A stretch of 64,000 bases of DNA from Candidatus Lustribacter sp. (GCA_965277805.1 OZ255842.1:3104001-3168000), one strand, 5' to 3'. Counted from the stretch's first letter, positions 41,177 to 50,561 are shown. Notes: a model not told the origin generated them from the sequence alone. A program made the numbers and translations.

Positions 41177-42367
41177 TTGATCGCGTCCTATACCTCGTAC
41201 GAAAACTCCCAGCTCGCCGCATCCCCGCTCCGCTGGTCGGCCCAAACGACCCGCAGCCTCCTCGCCAACCCGTTCAACCCGTGGCACTACACCCCGATCG
41301 GACGCGCCTTCGAAGCCGCCGCGACTGTCACCGAAGGCCTGCTGCAACCGCACGGCCACCCCGACTGGAACCTCGATGCCGAGATGACCGTCGTGACGGA
41401 ACGCCCGTTCTGCCGTCTCTTACGCTTCTCGTCGGGCGCCGGCGCCGAGCGCCCGCGGGTGTTGCTCGTCGCGCCGCTTTCGGGTCACTTCGCGACGCTG
41501 TTACGACCGACGGTTGCCGCGCTCGTGGGCGCGCACGACGTCTACGTCACCGACTGGAGCAACGCACGCGACGTTCCAATGAGCGCCGGAACGTTCGGCC
41601 TCGACGACTACGTCGACTACATGATCGAAGATATGCGCATGCTCGGACCGGATGCGCACGTGATCGCGGTGTGTCAGCCGTGCCCGCCCGTACTCGCGGC
41701 GATCGCCGTGATGGCCGCGAGCAACGATCCCGCGCAACCGCGCTCGATGACGCTTATGGGCGGTCCGGTCGACACGCGCGTGGCGCCGACGGTGCCGACC
41801 GAACTTGCGGTTTCGCGTCCACTGAGCTGGTTTGCCGACGAACTGATCGCAACGGTGCCGGCACGCTACGCCGGAGCGGGACGCCGCGTCTATCCGGGCT
41901 TCGTCCAAATCGGCGCGTTTCTGAGCATGAACCCCGGCCGGCACATCGATGCGCATGTCGGCATGTTCAACGATCTCGTGCGCGGCAACACCGCTTCAGC
42001 GCACCGCCGCCAAGCATTCTACGATGAGTACCTCGCGGTGATGGACGTGACGGCGGATTATTTCCTCGAAACCGTCGACGCGGTGTTTCAGCGCCATGCG
42101 CTGCCGCTCGGCACCTGGATGCATCGCGGCGAGCGCGTCGATCTGACGGCGATTCGTAAGACCGCACTGCTCACGGTGGAAGGCGAACTCGACGACATCT
42201 CGGCGGTCGGCCAAACCGCCGCCGCGCACGGCCTTACGCCGAATATTCCGGCCGCACGCCACGAATCGCACATCGAACCCGGCGTGGGCCATTACGGGAT
42301 CTTCAGCGGTTCGCACTGGCGTTCGAACGTCGCGCCGCTGATCGCGGACTTCATCCGCCGGACGTAA
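41177..42367 (+). CDS. phaZ: Intracellular PHB depolymerase
   Basis: VAPLSGHFATLLR, VYVTDW, VCQP (Cys nucleophile), MGGPVD, RVYPGF, TVEGELDDIS, GVGHYGIFSG. Confidence 0.95.
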   Translation: MIASYTSYENSQLAASPLRWSAQTTRSLLANPFNPWHYTPIGRAFEAAATVTEGLLQPHGHPDWNLDAEMTVVTERPFCRLLRFSSGAGAERPRVLLVAPLSGHFATLLRPTVAALVGAHDVYVTDWSNARDVPMSAGTFGLDDYVDYMIEDMRMLGPDAHVIAVCQPCPPVLAAIAVMAASNDPAQPRSMTLMGGPVDTRVAPTVPTELAVSRPLSWFADELIATVPARYAGAGRRVYPGFVQIGAFLSMNPGRHIDAHVGMFNDLVRGNTASAHRRQAFYDEYLAVMDVTADYFLETVDAVFQRHALPLGTWMHRGERVDLTAIRKTALLTVEGELDDISAVGQTAAAHGLTPNIPAARHESHIEPGVGHYGIFSGSHWRSNVAPLIADFIRRT

Positions 42368-42369
42368 CC

Positions 42370-43437
42370 GTGAACGTGACGGACGTCGACACGCCGGCGT
42401 TGCTGCTCGACCTCGACCGGGTCGAGCGCAACCTCGACCGCATGGCGGCGCTCGTTGCGGCAACGCCGGTGAAGCTGCGTCCGCACGCCAAAACGCACAA
42501 GACCGCCCGCATCGCGCACATGCAACTCGAGCGCGGCGCGATCGGTGTGTGCAGTGCGAAGCTCGCCGAAGCGGAAGTGCTCGCGGACGGCGGCGTTCCC
42601 GACATCTTGATCACGACCGAAATTATCGGCGCGGCGAAAATCCGGCGGCTGCTCGCGCTCGCCGCGCGCGCCGCGGTGACGATCGTGGTCGATGACGCGC
42701 GAGCGGCAATAGCGCTCGCCGCCGCCGCCGGCGCCGCCGGTCTGCAGCTCGATACGCTGGTCGACGTCGACGTGGGCCAGCATCGCACCGGAACGCTCCC
42801 GGGCGCACCGGCCGTCGCACTCGGTATCGTCGTCAACAAACTGCCGGGACTTCGTCTGCGCGGCCTGCAAGGCTACGAAGGGCACGTTCAGCACATCGCC
42901 GGCATGGATGAACGCCGGGCGGCCAACGCGAGCGCGATGTCACTCTTGTGCGAAACCGCAGCGGCATTTACTGCAGCCGGACTCGCTACCGATATCGTCA
43001 CGACGGGCGGCACGGGAACGGCGCTCTTCTCCGCCGCCTATCCGGCGATCACCGACGTGCAGCCGGGTTCGTATGTCGTGATGGACGCACAATACGGCGA
43101 CGTGGACGGCGTAACGTACGAGTCCGCGCTCACGCTGCTGACGACGGTCTTGAGCGTGCGCGACGGCTGGGCGGTGCTCGACGCCGGCCGCAAGTCGCTC
43201 AGCCACGATGCCGGCCCACCGCGCATCATCGGCCTGGACGCTGCGTTCGAATTCGGCGGCGACGAACACGGCAAACTGCGCTTCACCGGCGCACCCCCGG
43301 TCACGCTCGGCCAAACGTTGCAGATCCTGCCCAGCCACTGCGACACCACCATCAACCTCCACGACGAATACATCATCCACCGCAGCGGCACCGTCATCGA
43401 CCACTGGCCCATCGAAGCCCGCGGCAAAACAACATAA
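42370..43437 (+). CDS. PLP-dependent D-threonine aldolase / D-serine dehydratase (DSD1, alanine racemase fold)
   Basis: TPALLLDL, RPHAKTHK, QGYEGH, GGTGT, QPGSYVVMD, DEHG, PSHCDTT.NL. Confidence 0.9.
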   Translation: MNVTDVDTPALLLDLDRVERNLDRMAALVAATPVKLRPHAKTHKTARIAHMQLERGAIGVCSAKLAEAEVLADGGVPDILITTEIIGAAKIRRLLALAARAAVTIVVDDARAAIALAAAAGAAGLQLDTLVDVDVGQHRTGTLPGAPAVALGIVVNKLPGLRLRGLQGYEGHVQHIAGMDERRAANASAMSLLCETAAAFTAAGLATDIVTTGGTGTALFSAAYPAITDVQPGSYVVMDAQYGDVDGVTYESALTLLTTVLSVRDGWAVLDAGRKSLSHDAGPPRIIGLDAAFEFGGDEHGKLRFTGAPPVTLGQTLQILPSHCDTTINLHDEYIIHRSGTVIDHWPIEARGKTT

Positions 43438-43466: not shown

Positions 43467-44501
43467 CTATGTCAGTTGGGGGATTTTTTCGCCGCGGACT
43501 TTGGCTCGGGCTAGGGCGGCGCCGGCGTTCATGGCGCGCAGTTTGGCGAGGGCGATTTTGGTTGGGAGATGGCGCAGGCCGCAATCGGGGTTGACCACGA
43601 TTTGCTCGGGGCCGATGACGGCGAGCGCGCGATCGACACGTGAGGCGACCTGCTGCGGGCTTTCGACCGTCTCGCTCTTCACGTCGATGACGCCGAGGCC
43701 GAGCTTGAACGACGGATGGTACTTCTTGAACAGCGCGACGTCGTCGTAGCCCTTGCGCGCAAACTCGAGCACGAGCTGATCGACCTGCGCATCCATGATC
43801 GCCGGGAAGAGAAAGTCGTAGTGACCTTCCCACGCCGGGCGCGCGTGCCGGTTGCCGTAGCAGATGTGCAGCGCCCACTCGACGTCGACGCCCTCGACGA
43901 CGAGGTTGATCGCCTTGACCGCGAGCGGCACCGCTTCGGGGTAGCCGGCCAAGAACGGCTCGTCGATCTGTAAGAGCGCGGCACCGGCCGCGGCGAGCTC
44001 GCGCGCTTCGCGGTTGAGCATGCGCGCGATGTCGAGCACGAGGCCCTCGGCGTCGGGATAGCCTTCGTTGCGAATGCGCTTGGACAGCGAAAACGGACCG
44101 GTGAACGAGAACTTGATCGGTTTATCGGTCTGCTCGCGCGTGAACTGGAAGTCGGCCGCGAGCCGCAAGCCCGCCGCGTCCTCGGGGTTCGGCAGCGGCG
44201 CGCGCACCGCCGCGTCGTAGTAGTCGTAGTAGTGCACTTTGGCGAGCTTCGGCAGCTCGATGCCGGGCATGCGTTCCAGGAAGTAGTCGATGTCGTTGTC
44301 GCGACGCAGCTCGCCGTCGGAGACGATGTCGACTCCGGCGCGCTCTTGATCTTTGAGCGCGGCTTTGATCGCGGTGTCGTAGATCTCGTTGAGCGAGGTA
44401 CGGCTAATGCGTCCTTCGTGGAAGTCGGTCTTCGCGCGTTCGAGCCATTCCGGCACCGAGTACGAACCGACGACCGTCGTCGGAAGCAGATCCTCGCTCA
44501 T
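43467..44501 (-). CDS. Single-barrel (core) cobalamin-independent methionine synthase family protein
   Basis: PTTVVGSY, DIVSDGELRR, TGPFSL, QIDEP, Zn ligands HICYGN / LEF / NPDCG; 344 aa, so it lacks the N-terminal barrel of full-length MetE. Confidence 0.9.
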   Translation of the reverse strand: MSEDLLPTTVVGSYSVPEWLERAKTDFHEGRISRTSLNEIYDTAIKAALKDQERAGVDIVSDGELRRDNDIDYFLERMPGIELPKLAKVHYYDYYDAAVRAPLPNPEDAAGLRLAADFQFTREQTDKPIKFSFTGPFSLSKRIRNEGYPDAEGLVLDIARMLNREARELAAAGAALLQIDEPFLAGYPEAVPLAVKAINLVVEGVDVEWALHICYGNRHARPAWEGHYDFLFPAIMDAQVDQLVLEFARKGYDDVALFKKYHPSFKLGLGVIDVKSETVESPQQVASRVDRALAVIGPEQIVVNPDCGLRHLPTKIALAKLRAMNAGAALARAKVRGEKIPQLT

Positions 44502-45952
44502 TCACGCACCTCTGCGGTCATCGTGGTAATGTTTGATCCGGTTCGAAACGCAAACTTCCGGAACGCAACGTCGAAGCCGCGGCGGCCGCCCAGCGCCGCG
44601 AGCACGTTGCCGTTTACCCAGTTCACCACCGAGCCTTCGTACTTGCCCGGTCCGCGGAAGGCGTTCGCGTAGCCTTCGAGGTTGGTGACGAAGATATCGT
44701 GACACTCGAGGATCCCGTGCGGATGCAAGAGCGGCAGCGTGTCGACGAAGCTCGCCGCCGCGCCGTTGCTGACGTGCATGCGTACGTCGCCGTGCGCCTC
44801 CATCAACGGCCGCAAAACCTCGCCGTTGATCCCCGGCGCAAACTCGTACTCATCGAGCGGCGGCAACGCCACGTAGCGCTCCTCGAGGCCGATCGCTTCC
44901 CACACGGCGGCCCAAAACCGCACGGCCGCGTGCGCGTCGGCAAAGCGGCGAGGCTCCGTTTCCGCCAGTAGTTCGGGCCCCAGGCGCAGCAAGCGCGCGA
45001 TGAGATCGGGCAATTCGCCGGCGCTCGAGTTGATGCTCGCCGCGATCGCCGCTGCCGGCGCCGCGGCCAGATACGCGCGCGTCTCCACCTGAAAGAGATG
45101 TCCGTCGATGCGCGCGATCTCGTCGGTCGGCAGGTTGTCGTACACGTTGGAGATGTAGACGAAGAACGTCTTGTACTTGAGAAAACCCAGCGTGTTCGAC
45201 GGCTTGGTCGCATCCAGCACGATCGTGCTCGTGCGGTCCTCGTGGTGACGCACTTGCTCGCGCGCAACTTCGAGCAAATGCGGCGAGTAGTCGCCCATCA
45301 AGTAGTGCAGACGCCGGTAGTAATCGCGGCCGGCTTCGCGGTCGATCTCGAGGAACGTGTCGAGCCACACGCGCGCCTGACTGCCGTTACCGACGCCGAT
45401 CTCGAGCACGTGGAGCTGATCGGGCAGCGCGCGCCGTTCGGCGAGCCCATCCCAAATCGCGAACAGGCGCGTGATCGTATCGCGCGCGGCGGCTGAGTTG
45501 CGCGCGTCGCTCTCGCCGCCCGGCAACGCCTGTTCGTAGGGCCGGCCCGACACCGCTTCCCACAAACCGAGCGCCTTCCAGTAGAGCCCGTTGAAACTCC
45601 AGATCATGCTCGCCGTCGTGCGGCTCCAGGGTTCGAGATAGTGGCGGTCCGATTCAGACCGGCGCGCGAGCGCGCGCGTCATTTCGGCGTTCACGTCGTG
45701 CTGCGCGCCCGCCGTGCGCCGCAGGTCGACGCCGATTTCGAGCCGCTCGTGCGCGCTGCCGTTGAGAATCGGCCGAACTTCGACCGCTTCGCGGAAACTG
45801 TTCTTGTACTGCACCCAGTCGCACACAATGCGCAGGCGATCGAGGTCGAGCGATTCGTCACCGACCGCGTGCATGATCGAGCCGAGCACGCTCGCCACGG
45901 CAGCGCCGTTGTCTTTGCGCAAGCGCTCCGTGGGTCGCAGATCAACTAACAT
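44498..45952 (-). CDS. Uncharacterised class I SAM-methyltransferase-fold protein (MidA/NDUFAF7-like core) with an extra N-terminal region
   Basis: VLEIGVGNG motif I, acidic GDYS after beta2, SNVYDNLPTD; overlaps both metF and the core methionine synthase gene. Confidence 0.7.
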   Translation of the reverse strand: MLVDLRPTERLRKDNGAAVASVLGSIMHAVGDESLDLDRLRIVCDWVQYKNSFREAVEVRPILNGSAHERLEIGVDLRRTAGAQHDVNAEMTRALARRSESDRHYLEPWSRTTASMIWSFNGLYWKALGLWEAVSGRPYEQALPGGESDARNSAAARDTITRLFAIWDGLAERRALPDQLHVLEIGVGNGSQARVWLDTFLEIDREAGRDYYRRLHYLMGDYSPHLLEVAREQVRHHEDRTSTIVLDATKPSNTLGFLKYKTFFVYISNVYDNLPTDEIARIDGHLFQVETRAYLAAAPAAAIAASINSSAGELPDLIARLLRLGPELLAETEPRRFADAHAAVRFWAAVWEAIGLEERYVALPPLDEYEFAPGINGEVLRPLMEAHGDVRMHVSNGAAASFVDTLPLLHPHGILECHDIFVTNLEGYANAFRGPGKYEGSVVNWVNGNVLAALGGRRGFDVAFRKFAFRTGSNITTMTAEVRE

Positions 45953-46886
45953 GTTCGTTCACCCGCGCGTGCGCCCGCCGGCCGAGTCCCGCGCGTTCGA
46001 GAATTTCGGGAACCAAGTGCTCTGCGCCGAAGGCCATCACGTGGACGCCGGCGAGATCCGGAATCGCGCGCAGTTCGGTGATGATCTCGGCGCACATCGC
46101 AATGCTCTCGTCGTGCACGCGCTCCGGCGGCACGCCGCGCAACCGCGCTTCGACCGCTTTCGGAACGACGATCCCGGGAATCTGCTGCATGCGCTCGAGC
46201 GCGCGCAGCGAGCGAATCGGCCCGACGCCGGCGAGCACGCCGCAGCGCTGCGTGAGCCCGAGATCGCGTGACGCTTGCATCCACGCCGTAAAGTGCGCGA
46301 CGTCGAACACGTACTGCGTCTGCACGAACTCGGCGCCCGCGGCGATCTTCTTGCCGAGACGTTCGGCCCGAAACGCGAGCGGCGGCGCAAACGGGTTCTC
46401 GACGCCGCCGATCAGCCAGGCCGGCGCCGGCTTCAGCGTTTTTCCCGAGAGCAGCTTCCCCTGATCGCGCATCGTCCGCGCCGTCCACAATAATTGCACG
46501 GAGTCGAGGTCGAACACGCCGCGCGCTTCGGGGTGATCGCCGAACTTCTGATGATCGCCCGTCAAGAGCAACACGTTGGGGATGTTGAGCGCGGCCGCGC
46601 CGAGGAGATCGGATTGCAGCGCGAGCCGGTTGCGATCGCGGCACTGCAGTTGCATCACCGGCTCGACGTCTTCTTCGAGCGCGAGCACGCAGCCGGCCAA
46701 ACTGGAGAGCCGCACCATAGCGCCCTGATTGTCGGTGACGTTGGCAGCATCGACCCAGTCGTGCAGCACGCGCGCGCCCTTGCGGATCGCATCGGGATCG
46801 GCCCCGCGCGGCGGGCTGAGTTCCGCGGTCACGGCGAAACGGCGCTCGCGGATGGCGTCGCGCAGTCGATTGCCGGACGCGGTCAT
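45942..46886 (-). CDS. metF: Methylenetetrahydrofolate reductase, MetVF-type catalytic subunit
   Basis: TAELSPP, NVTDN, CRDRNRLALQSDLLGA, LTGD, FDLDSVQL, KKIAAGAEFVQTQ, GVHVM; start ATG 46886 (ATGA overlap). Confidence 0.93.
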   Translation of the reverse strand: MTASGNRLRDAIRERRFAVTAELSPPRGADPDAIRKGARVLHDWVDAANVTDNQGAMVRLSSLAGCVLALEEDVEPVMQLQCRDRNRLALQSDLLGAAALNIPNVLLLTGDHQKFGDHPEARGVFDLDSVQLLWTARTMRDQGKLLSGKTLKPAPAWLIGGVENPFAPPLAFRAERLGKKIAAGAEFVQTQYVFDVAHFTAWMQASRDLGLTQRCGVLAGVGPIRSLRALERMQQIPGIVVPKAVEARLRGVPPERVHDESIAMCAEIITELRAIPDLAGVHVMAFGAEHLVPEILERAGLGRRAHARVNEHVS

Positions 46887-47428
46887 CGCTGATCGATCGG
46901 CGGCGCGGGCGCGAACGACGTGTCGCTGCTCCACAGTCCGGCGTCACGGTTCTGCCAGTAATTCACCCACGAGCTCAGGCCCCATTGGCGCTGATCGATC
47001 GGCCGCTGCAGGCGGCGCAGATCGGACGTCCGGCCCGCCGACGCGGCGCGTTCGTATGCGACGAGCCACACACAGCGCAGACCGGGATAGACCTCGCAGT
47101 CGCCGTTCGCGCCGACTCCGCCGCAGGGGCCGTTCCGCAGCTCTTTCGGACAGCTCATCGGGCAAGCATAGGCGGTGCTGGGCAGCGCGCACTGCGCGCA
47201 CATCCGGCAGCCGAAGAGCTTGCCCTTGACCGCTTTTTCAACCGCCGTGAACGCACGGTAGGCCCAGGGCGTTGCCTCGAGCCACACGGCGAAGGCGTAA
47301 AACAGGCGTTGGGGCCGGAGCAGCCGGCCGAGCACCAGGGCCAGGGGCAACGAAATGCCCGGCGTCGTCGGCACCGGCCGGTTCGCGACGCGCCCACCCG
47401 CTGCTGAAGCGTGAACGGCATTTTCCAC
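46883..47428 (-). CDS. metV: MTHFR C-terminal domain / MetV-like Cys-rich subunit
   Basis: FGCRMCAQCAL...CPMSCPKELRNGPCGG...CEV....CVW; start uncertain (GTG 47428 or ATG 47452). Confidence 0.85.
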   Translation of the reverse strand: MENAVHASAAGGRVANRPVPTTPGISLPLALVLGRLLRPQRLFYAFAVWLEATPWAYRAFTAVEKAVKGKLFGCRMCAQCALPSTAYACPMSCPKELRNGPCGGVGANGDCEVYPGLRCVWLVAYERAASAGRTSDLRRLQRPIDQRQWGLSSWVNYWQNRDAGLWSSDTSFAPAPPIDQR

Positions 47429-47498
47429 GTGTGGCCCTCGAATTGAGCGCATTCAACGAACTCGGGCTCGTCCACTTCAGCCGCTACGAGGCGTGCGT

Positions 47499-49068: not shown

Positions 49069-49821
49069 ATGAACCTCGTAAAAGACGACGTAATTTTGCT
49101 CGCCGGCATCACCGGCCGCATCGGTTCGGCACCGCTGACGACGCTCGTGGCAGAAGGCGCTCGCGTGGTGGTGCTCTCGCGCGATCGCAAGCGAGCCGAG
49201 GCGGCCATTGCGACGGCGCTCGAACCGGGCGTGCGCGAGCGGGCAATGGCGCTCGCGGCCGACCTTTACGATCCGGTCTCCGCGTCGGCGGCGGTTACCG
49301 AATGCGTCAAGACGTTCGGGCGGCTCGATGCCGTGATCAATCTAGCCGGCAGCGGCTGGCGGCGCAAGAAAATAACCGACGCGTCGCTCGGCGATCTGCG
49401 CGAGACGCTGGCCGAAGTCATCGAGACGGCGTCCAACCTCGCACAAGCCGCGCTGCGCGCGATGCTGGCGCAACCGTATCGCGACGGCGCGCGTTCGCGC
49501 GGCCGCATCGTGACCACGACCGCCACGACGGCCAAAGCGCCGAATCCCGGCATGTCGGCTTTCGCGACGGCGAAAGCCGGCGTCAACGCGCTGATGCTCT
49601 CGATCGCGCGCGAACACAAAGCCGACGGCATCGTCGCGAACGCGCTGCTGGTCGGCGGCGTCGCGTTTCCGGGCGCCGATCATTTCCGCTCCGATGAAGC
49701 GCGCAAAACTGCGGTATCGGTGCAAGAGCTCGCAAACACGCTGACGTTTCTCGCCAGCGATCGTTCGAGCGGCATCAACGGCGCATTGCTCGATCTCACC
49801 GCGCGGTTAACCGACCGGTGA
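49069..49821 (+). CDS. SDR family protein, copy 1 (FxxxK instead of YxxxK)
   Basis: [28 protein letters not shown]. Confidence 0.85.
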
Positions 49822-50561
49822 ACCTCGTCGACGGAGACGTCGTGCTCTTGGCCGGTGCGACTGGACGCGTCGGCGGTGCGACGCTCGCTACGCTCGTACG
49901 CGAAGGCGCGCGCGTGGCGGTGCTTTCGCGCGACCGCGCTCGCGCCGCGGCAACGATCGCATCCGTGCTGGAACCGGGCGAGGTCGCAAACGCACTGCCG
50001 CTCGAGGCCGACTTGAACGACGCCGGGTCGGCGGCCGCAGCCGTTACCGCGAGCGTCGCAGCGTTTGGACGCATCGATGCGCTGATCAACTTGGCCGGCA
50101 GCGGCCCGCAACGCGTTCCGCTCGTGCAATCGAAACTCGAAGACTTGCAGCAATCGCTGGCCGGCTACACCGAGACCGCGTACAACCTCGCAATGCCGGC
50201 GCTGCGCGCAATGCTGGCCCAACCGTTTCGCGAGGGAACGCTCTCGCGCGGACGCATCGTCACCGTGACGGCCGGCTCGTCGAAGTCGCCGGCGCCGGGG
50301 CGTGGCGCGTTCGCGGTTGCCAAAGCCGGCGTCAACGCGTTGATGCTCGCGATCGCGCGCGAACACAAAGCCGACGGCATCGTCGCAAACGCGCTGGTCC
50401 TCGGCGGCGTCGCCTTCCCCGGCCGCGAGGGAAAACCCGAAGACATCGAAGCCGCCGCCACTCCGCAAGAAGTCGCCGACGTCCTCACCTTCCTCGCCAG
50501 CGACCGCTCCAGCGGCATCAACGGCGAGCTCGTCGACCTAAACGCAAGAGAAATCGACTAA
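49818..50561 (+). CDS. SDR family protein, copy 2 (FxxxK instead of YxxxK)
   Basis: AGATGRVG, FGRIDALINLAG, AFAVAKAG; tandem paralog with a GTGA overlap. Confidence 0.85.
   Translation: MNLVDGDVVLLAGATGRVGGATLATLVREGARVAVLSRDRARAAATIASVLEPGEVANALPLEADLNDAGSAAAAVTASVAAFGRIDALINLAGSGPQRVPLVQSKLEDLQQSLAGYTETAYNLAMPALRAMLAQPFREGTLSRGRIVTVTAGSSKSPAPGRGAFAVAKAGVNALMLAIAREHKADGIVANALVLGGVAFPGREGKPEDIEAAATPQEVADVLTFLASDRSSGINGELVDLNAREID

Follow-up and report, generated by a model that had tools for sequence, protein, structure and literature searches.

A methyltransferase-fold protein as candidate partner of a single-barrel methionine synthase in Candidatus Lustribacter

From which methyl donor, and with the help of which partner, does a methionine synthase reduced to one MetE barrel make methionine? 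Single-barrel MetE enzymes are generally regarded as incapable of using methyl-tetrahydrofolate (methyl-THF), and the question of what serves them as donor in nature dates from 1999. The question is raised in an unusual form by a four-gene operon in a 64,000-nucleotide (nt) stretch of DNA from Candidatus Lustribacter sp. (GCA_965277805.1 OZ255842.1:3104001-3168000; hereafter the window, from whose start all coordinates are counted). The operon encodes the two subunits of a methylenetetrahydrofolate reductase (MTHFR), a 484-residue protein that we call X484, and a 344-residue, single-barrel MetE-type protein that we call core MetE (Table 1). A reading of the sequence alone had described four overlapping genes here and had suggested that the third of them supplies what the synthase lacks; all four open reading frames (ORFs) were located on the minus strand with their junction overlaps. 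We think it somewhat probable that X484 and core MetE are the two subunits of a methionine synthase that works without B12 and draws on methyl-THF, X484 standing in for the N-terminal barrel.

The X484-core MetE pair

Strong support for a partnership comes from synteny. Relatives of X484 were found in 391 stretches or genomes of a collection covering 185,579 species, and among the best 80 of these loci (53 to 96% identity), which we analyzed, core MetE lies directly downstream of X484 on the same strand in every one, two of them being cut by contig ends. The 80 loci come from Eremiobacterota-type bacteria, Binatia, Chloroflexota, one Proteobacteria metagenome-assembled genome (MAG), and many Actinomycetota, including three cultured strains (Pseudonocardia yunnanensis, P. 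alaniniphila, and Nonomuraea rhizosphaerae). A sample of 301 Chloroflexota-type genomes held 11 X484 carriers, 9 of them with a divergent subfamily that is 40 to 44% identical, and there too core MetE follows immediately (9/9 genomes, or 8/8 without the unpublished genome G198, locus L101), with the neighbors rearranged. The adjacency is reciprocal. When metagenome contigs were searched starting from core MetE, X484 was directly upstream in 77 of 80 loci; the three misses have less than 210 nt of upstream sequence, and the count is 73/73 for loci with at least 300 nt. A protein search returned more than 2,000 related proteins. The pair is apparently obligate. At the level of synteny, the proposal that the core synthase finds its missing partner in the 484-residue protein is well borne out, the third gene adjoining core MetE wherever the upstream DNA suffices.

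The two genes are also joined more closely than by adjacency. They meet in an ATGA start/stop overlap, and one database protein (P0122, 865 residues) joins full X484 and core MetE sequences through a linker of two residues. Together with the reciprocal adjacency, the overlap and the natural fusion support X484 as the partner of core MetE. Prediction of the complex, which the sequence-only reading had proposed, gave weak support, with a score of 0.56 for X484 and core MetE, the best of three controls scoring 0.00. The runs agreed in at least 92% of contacts, with a predicted local distance difference test (pLDDT) value of at least 90 for the partner. In calibration, the passing mark was cleared by 58 of 80 solved complexes and by 2 of 110 mismatched pairs, and passing scores of 0.60 or less were reached by only 7 of the 80 solved complexes and by both of the passing mismatches. 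We count the prediction as modest support for an association because the synteny prior is high.

Core MetE itself has its catalytic residues intact. It matches PF01717 (Meth_synt_2) at 155.6 bits, with PF08267 under its cut-off, and it falls below every NCBIfam cut-off, scoring 289 bits against 406 for PRK04326 (which we take to be the catalytic half of split MetE), 195 against 392 for PRK09121, and 112.4 against 929.95 for TIGR01371, the canonical MetE model, whose match covers the C-terminal half only. The motifs quoted in the sequence-only reading for this protein and for X484 are present in the translations. When 22 orthologues were aligned, residues S13, E64, D180, H212, C214, E246, and C307 did not vary, so the Zn ligands that had been called intact (H212, C214, E246, and C307) are indeed so throughout. 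Through alignments to solved relatives, we matched these residues by eye to the homocysteine contacts and zinc ligands of Escherichia coli MetE named in the parts of Price 2021 (PMC7857596) drawn on here. By this comparison, core MetE appears to keep all of the zinc ligands and all of the homocysteine-binding positions named there. With an HxC...E...C ligand set and Ser, Glu, and Asp homocysteine contacts, it carries the marks of a Zn-dependent homocysteine methyltransferase. Its nearest solved relative, at 162 bits, is 3rpd, a MesD structure according to the same parts of Price 2021; the C-terminal barrels of canonical MetE reach about 101 bits.

In a quick maximum-likelihood tree of 56 rows, all 28 core MetE sequences with a linked X484 group in a single clade (SH-aLRT 98), and 27 comparison representatives of lower identity fall outside it. 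The partners of the divergent X484 subfamily branch at the base of this clade, mirroring the split within X484. The comparison rows were near full length (325 to 393 residues), at most 40% identical, and drawn from 150 listed representatives, with unnamed 50%-cluster representatives classed by NCBIfam; fragments and closer representatives of unknown context (e.g., P0136 and P0138) were left out. The tree shows a separation from other families, not that every closer relative is X484-linked. Near the X484-linked clade stands P0161, a true PRK04326 member (530 bits) that is 39% identical to core MetE.

X484 is far less familiar. In Pfam it has only a subthreshold match to PF02636 (Methyltransf_28; 21.2 bits, cut-off 23.3), no NCBIfam model matches it, and annotation pipelines label it a generic SAM-dependent methyltransferase (SAM, S-adenosylmethionine) or hypothetical protein. 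A sequence-profile search of its alignment against solved structures returned only chance-level peroxidase matches (E 0.097 or worse). Its AlphaFold2 (AF2) model, built from a 23-row alignment (pLDDT 80.7; predicted template modeling score [pTM] 0.81), has a class-I methyltransferase fold. In VIA-align, 963 of 1,000 chains reached a Z score of at least 8 against the model, all of the listed rows being methyltransferases; the best was 5egp (Z 16.7), and many methyltransferases reach Z 15 to 17 on the X484 core. The best Foldseek matches include the COG1565 proteins 1zkd and 4g67 and MidA (5zu0), at E values of about 1e-6 and TM scores of 0.40 to 0.43. VIA-align superimposes MidA on 290 residues (Z 15.1, rmsd 3.8) and 1zkd on 268 (Z 15.0, rmsd 3.5), and both alignments span model residues 105 to 484, with residues 1 to 104 barely covered. 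The modeled structure thus marks X484 as a distant relative of PF02636 (MidA/NDUFAF7), structurally alike though below the gathering score.

The putative SAM-binding fold that the sequence-only reading gave to X484 is supported by the AF2 model and by the motif residues, which are invariant across both subfamilies. They comprise E184, G186, G188, and G190 in motif I (E-x-G-x-G-x-G); D221, the acidic residue after strand 2; and N269, Y271, D272, N273, L274, P275, and E278 in the motif IV region. The motif names are those used for class-I methyltransferases, and the motif II and IV patterns look similar to those of NDUFAF7. A class-I SAM-dependent fold calls for just such a motif I (GxGxG) and for an acidic residue following strand 2. 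Two loops of low pLDDT are likewise conserved across both subfamilies, LPGGxSD (143 to 149) and FRGPGK (432 to 437). No cysteine is invariant in the alignment spanning the two.

Genomic setting

Neighbors were counted after clustering the ORFs of the 80 loci, 63 of which have at least 3 kb of upstream and 61 at least 5.5 kb of downstream sequence. An MTHFR gene lies upstream of X484 on the same strand in 47 of the 63 (34 of the MetF type and 13 of the mycobacterial type, PF19345 MTHFR_2), and metV in 35. Downstream of the pair, the 61 loci hold MetK 43 times, a PfkB-family kinase 32 times, FTHFS 31 times, and AhcY 30 times; PurU, a YitJ-like homocysteine S-methyltransferase-MTHFR fusion, and a PucR regulator recur nearby. 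The window operon has neither MetK nor AhcY. At least one methyl-cycle or folate neighbor gene is present in 77 of all 80 loci. Of the four-gene synteny proposed earlier, then, the X484-core MetE pair is constant and the MTHFR gene is a frequent companion of two types. The pair stays constant while its neighbors shuffle and the MTHFR type varies, and from these conserved methyl-cycle neighbors it is seen to hold the methionine-synthase position in a gene set leading from one-carbon (C1) units to SAM. The claimed folate link of the synthase is supported to this extent, by gene context.

Three further features of these loci deserve mention. Among clusters at 90% identity, core MetE is fused to MetK in five (P0121, P0123-P0125, and P0129), to PfkB in five (P0127, P0128, P0130, P0132, and P0133), and to AhcY in one (P0126); these fusions may be real or may be read-through assembly errors. 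In about 13 Pseudonocardiaceae-type loci, a conserved 199-residue protein is encoded between the PF19345 MTHFR and X484 (e.g., L046:4577-5176). It has only a subthreshold 2OG-Fe(II) oxygenase match (20.8 versus 31.2 bits), and we rejected it as a MetV counterpart for want of similarity to MetV. In Chloroflexota and Pseudonocardia loci (L020, L023, L025, L026, L028, L030, L067, L078, and L086), genes for a 631-residue YitJ-like fusion and a PucR-type regulator lie upstream of metV, divergent from the operon, and the module may be under the control of this regulator.

The genome from which the window comes is a single contig of 5.53 Mb (completeness 95%, contamination 5.9%). It encodes a full MetH (1,077 bits) directly followed by a canonical MetF (303 bits), which makes the window metF its second MTHFR gene and gives the genome two MTHFR-plus-synthase modules, metH-metF and the window operon. 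The full MetH is a point against the framing of the sequence-only reading. Two of the absences on which that reading relied hold up. No protein over the cut-off for Meth_synt_1 (PF08267), the model of the MetE N-terminal domain, is encoded anywhere in the genome, the sole match (20.4 bits, cut-off 27) being on a PF01717 paralogue. No B12-binding domain occurs within the window, all four matches in the genome lying outside it, and no corrinoid protein is found among the conserved neighbor clusters of the 80 loci. A search of the genome for MesX (DUF1852, PF08908) gave no match, and neither did any of 14 control genomes.

The genome also has an unusually large set of core-MetE-like paralogues, with 14 PF01717 matches (13 over the cut-off), most of them in open frames of 373 to 481 residues; examples on its contig C1 are at 560581-561579, 545965-546966, 1696834-1697829, 4449890-4450927, and 5400622-5401611. 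The second-closest core MetE paralogue (353 residues; PF01717, 103.9 bits) is at L002:1465-2526 on the minus strand of locus L002 (C1:3024189-3028178) and groups with PRK09121-like representatives in the tree. A 500-residue ORF upstream of it was tried as a second X484 and rejected (hhalign probability 0.4, no Pfam match); it may be spurious in this GC-rich DNA.

The layout of the operon is given in Table 1. The metV product (189 residues from ATG 47452, with an in-frame GTG at 47428, codon 9, as an alternative start) matches PF12225 DUF5981, "MTHFR C-terminal," at 88.8 bits (cut-off 23) over residues 67 to 154. The metF frame runs for 330 residues from GTG 46934, with a probable ATG start at 46886, and matches PF02219 at 106.7 bits. 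With both subunits over their cut-offs and their genes overlapping, the reductase is of the MetVF type. The metV/metF junction is again ATGA if metF begins at the internal ATG 46886, and metF and X484 share 11 nt. Of the genes flanking the operon, the one encoding the alanine-racemase-N-like protein converges on the operon end and follows the PHB depolymerase-type gene; this arrangement recurs in L013 and L017, the closest relatives, whereas L012 and L015 have part of it and L014 and L018 lack it. Beyond metV, two tandem paralogous ORFs with similar N termini overlap by 4 nt.

Table 1. Features of the operon and its flanks, in window coordinates
Feature	Coordinates	Strand	Basis or product
metV, small Cys-rich subunit of MetVF-type methylene-THF reductase	46883..47452	-	PF12225 DUF5981
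metF, methylenetetrahydrofolate reductase, MetVF type	45942..46934	-	PF02219
X484, 484-aa class-I methyltransferase-fold protein, MidA/COG1565-like, proposed obligate partner	44498..45952	-	AF2 model and structure comparison
core MetE, 344-aa single-barrel Zn-dependent homocysteine methyltransferase (putative catalytic subunit)	43467..44501	-	PF01717
PHB depolymerase C-terminal-domain protein	41177-42367	+	281.9 bits
alanine-racemase-N/D-serine-dehydratase-like protein	42370-43437	+	
tandem paralogous ORF	49069-49821	+	250 aa
tandem paralogous ORF	49818-50561	+	247 aa

Relation to known methionine synthases

A core synthase with an obligate partner is a known kind of system; the X484 partner family and the folate link are what is new. 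In the literature that we searched, which included Price 2021, Rao 2024, and the Phaeobacter Bmt and MtgBCD papers, no core methionine synthase is described as having a partner with a methyltransferase fold.

The closest parallel is MesD/MesX, as presented in the parts of Price 2021 consulted (PMC7857596). There, too, a single-barrel MetE-type catalyst depends on an unrelated protein from the adjoining gene, and the carriers are aerobic-type bacteria that in most cases also have MetH. MesD/MesX is given there as co-occurring with MetH in 75% of cases, and the X484 pair resembles it in this respect (8 of 11 pair-bearing genomes). The differences lie in the partner, which is a MidA-like methyltransferase fold and not DUF1852; in the catalyst, since core MetE reaches only 162 bits against 3rpd (our proxy for ACIAD3523), whereas the family threshold to ACIAD3523 is set there at 560 bits (phmmer) or 390 bits (BLAST); and in the folate connection, MesD/MesX being described as MetF independent, whereas an MTHFR gene typically stands before the X484 pair.

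Split MetE of archaea (PF1268/PF1269 type) is similar in that a catalytic half adjoins a separate partner and, in the account of the same source (PMC7857596), a methyl-pterin donor is predicted. The nearest curated model of core MetE is also PRK04326, at the 289 bits given above; however, core MetE stays below its cut-off of 406, and X484 is not a Meth_synt_1 barrel, none of which scores over the cut-off in the window's genome. A split-MetE catalytic half should reach at least 200 bits to PF1269 of Pyrococcus furiosus, a yardstick for which PRK04326 served here as proxy. Price 2021, in its parts used here, reports a split-MetE-like catalytic protein without an identifiable partner in 40 of 147 genomes, and these 40 may include members of the X484-linked core MetE family. 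With canonical two-barrel MetE (EC 2.1.1.14), core MetE shares the zinc and homocysteine ligands, the presumed donor, and the B12-independent niche, but the pair lacks an N-terminal barrel and has a second polypeptide of another fold instead. MesA, MesB, and MesC are core synthases that depend on corrinoid proteins (MtrA or CoFeSP) in strict anaerobes; no B12-binding domain was found in the window or among the conserved neighbor clusters. X484 shares its overall architecture over residues 105 to 484 with the MidA/NDUFAF7/COG1565 (PF02636) protein arginine methyltransferases. Its gene, however, always accompanies one for a methionine synthase, and no such setting is described for MidA. Three further candidates were rejected as relatives on the basis of the parts of the reports consulted: the Phaeocystis MetE fusion (PMC10861871), whose architecture is different (PP-binding, MetE, CzcO), and the Bmt (PMC12366255) and MtgBCD (PMC12478193) systems, which are unrelated to the X484 pair.

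Competing explanations and implications

Gene identities, intact catalytic residues, invariant pairing, and methyl-cycle context are established. A mechanism compatible with them would run as follows. The core MetE barrel would bind zinc and homocysteine and perform the methyl transfer. X484, made in equal amounts from the overlapping upstream gene, would be its obligate partner and would take the role of the N-terminal MetE barrel, of the split-MetE N-half, or of MesX in binding, presenting, or activating the methyl donor. The donor would most likely be 5-methyl-THF, made on the spot by the cotranscribed MetVF reductase, and the pair would provide a B12-independent route beside the MetH-MetF of the genome, feeding the SAM cycle. 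The SAM-type pocket of X484 may hold a pterin, or it may hold SAM or S-adenosylhomocysteine (SAH) as an allosteric or relay ligand. As to the part that X484 would play, a donor-binding or closing subunit, its conserved pocket perhaps holding a pterin, is possible; a SAM/SAH-sensing or activating subunit seems rather unlikely, and a true methyl relay decidedly so.

A number of observations weigh against such a synthase. The donor, the complex, and the activity of X484/core MetE, like the role given to X484, are all points that we infer from computation. The fusion protein is a single sequence from one 3.8-kb contig and may be an assembly error, and its AF2 model (unpaired block alignment; mean pLDDT 80.0, pTM 0.57) has no confident interface, with the X484 C terminus and the junction disordered at a pLDDT below 50. 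The complex score falls in the weak band. A same-strand upstream MTHFR was not scored in 16 of the 63 loci, by tblastn matches covering at least half of the query, and one of these 16 (L013) has its metF in pieces. Neither the window nor any of 11 related loci held a riboswitch at the Rfam gathering score, and none was found upstream of metV at E values up to 1 in 601 nt, so that the operon carries no B12 or SAM riboswitch by this search.

Nor does the distribution point to a pathway on which its hosts rely. The expected co-occurrence of the pair with loss of metE and metH is seen for one gene and not for the other: full MetE is absent from 9 of the 11 pair-bearing genomes, being present in two, as is a strong MetE N-domain, whereas MetH is over the cut-off in 8. 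Of the other three genomes, G159 has MetH in pieces and G005 has part of it, and in G160 it was not found. G160 (a 3.1-Mb MAG, completeness unknown) was the only one in which neither MetH nor MetE turned up, and no genome among the 11 clearly depends on the pair. In a sample of 151 genomes from the phylum of the window's organism, a clear X484 occurs in that genome alone. The pair is thus rare among relatives, and the module is patchy and probably mobile; it is widespread in soil Actinomycetota and Chloroflexota and is also found in Eremiobacterota, Binatia, and others.

The main unexplained feature is the intact SAM-type pocket of X484. That the predicted nucleotide pocket is complete across 40% identity would be expected of a real SAM-dependent enzyme and not of a mere folate-binding cap, and this keeps alive an explanation that we consider unlikely but take seriously: X484 may be an ordinary SAM-dependent methyltransferase with an unknown substrate, either a small molecule or a protein, and a high methyl demand, whose neighbors, core MetE among them, regenerate SAM, with core MetE acting alone or with a donor encoded elsewhere. 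The class-I fold, together with motif I, the acidic motif II residue, and motif IV conserved across both subfamilies, would fit this, as would the frequency of MetK, AhcY, the PfkB kinase, and FTHFS among the neighbors, and methyl-cycle gene sets do accompany high-flux methyltransferases in some biosynthetic clusters. The linkage, however, is specific to core MetE (80/80, 9/9, and 73/73, versus 43/61 for MetK and 30/61 for AhcY), the window operon makes do without MetK and AhcY, the start/stop overlap and the one fusion point to a subunit relation, and the donor problem of a single-barrel MetE would be left unsolved. The pocket can also be read as the seat of a cobalamin-free catalytic relay, in which SAH/SAM or another adenosyl thioether is a fixed cofactor that is loaded from 5-methyl-THF and then methylates the homocysteine bound to the zinc of the core barrel, a "MetH without B12" with the methyltransferase fold running in the loading direction. 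Compatible with this idea are the intact pocket, the link to MTHFR, and the lack of any invariant cysteine through which a covalent intermediate could form; we nonetheless consider it very improbable because sulfonium loading from N5-methyl-THF should be strongly uphill.

Two other explanations change the direction or the source of the methyl groups. If the pair, like the core synthases described so far, made methionine from a nonfolate donor, X484 would make or carry that donor, in a SAM-repair or S-methylmethionine-like cycle or as an unknown methylated metabolite, and the MTHFR adjacency would reflect a shared methionine/SAM regulon. The resemblance of core MetE to 3rpd, its closest solved relative at 162 bits, which is of the MesD type and thus of a kind that does not use methyl-THF as far as the parts of Price 2021 consulted go (PMC7857596), makes this worth weighing, as do the SAM-competent look of the pocket and the 16 loci with no scored MTHFR. 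Still, we find it improbable: SAM-to-homocysteine transfer yields no net methionine, two MTHFR types have been recruited beside the pair (34 and 13 of 63) with FTHFS and PurU nearby, corrinoid proteins are absent from the conserved neighbor clusters and from the window, and X484 has no invariant cysteine to carry a methyl group. A catabolic module, in which the pair demethylates some substrate with THF as acceptor and MetVF, FTHFS, and PurU go on to oxidize the methyl groups, earns hardly any credence from us. MetF, FTHFS, and PurU do occur in methyl-oxidation clusters as well, and the 14 PF01717 matches in the window's genome suggest a wider methyl-transfer repertoire; but all of the homocysteine-binding and zinc residues of core MetE are invariant, and the commonest neighbors, MetK, AhcY, and the PfkB kinase, are part of the SAM cycle rather than of C1 oxidation.

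The two-subunit, methyl-THF-fed synthase of X484 and core MetE would, if real, be an undescribed two-protein, vitamin-B12-independent route to methionine in many soil bacteria. Since annotation hides X484 under generic methyltransferase or hypothetical protein labels, such a B12-independent route may be missed when B12 dependence and methionine biosynthesis are predicted for the carrier groups. With a specific and highly conserved partner of a new fold in hand, and with cultured carriers named, the donor question of the single-barrel enzymes becomes testable by complementation in E. coli. Were the SAM-type pocket of X484 found to accommodate folate or to act as a relay, this would be new chemistry for the commonest methyltransferase fold.

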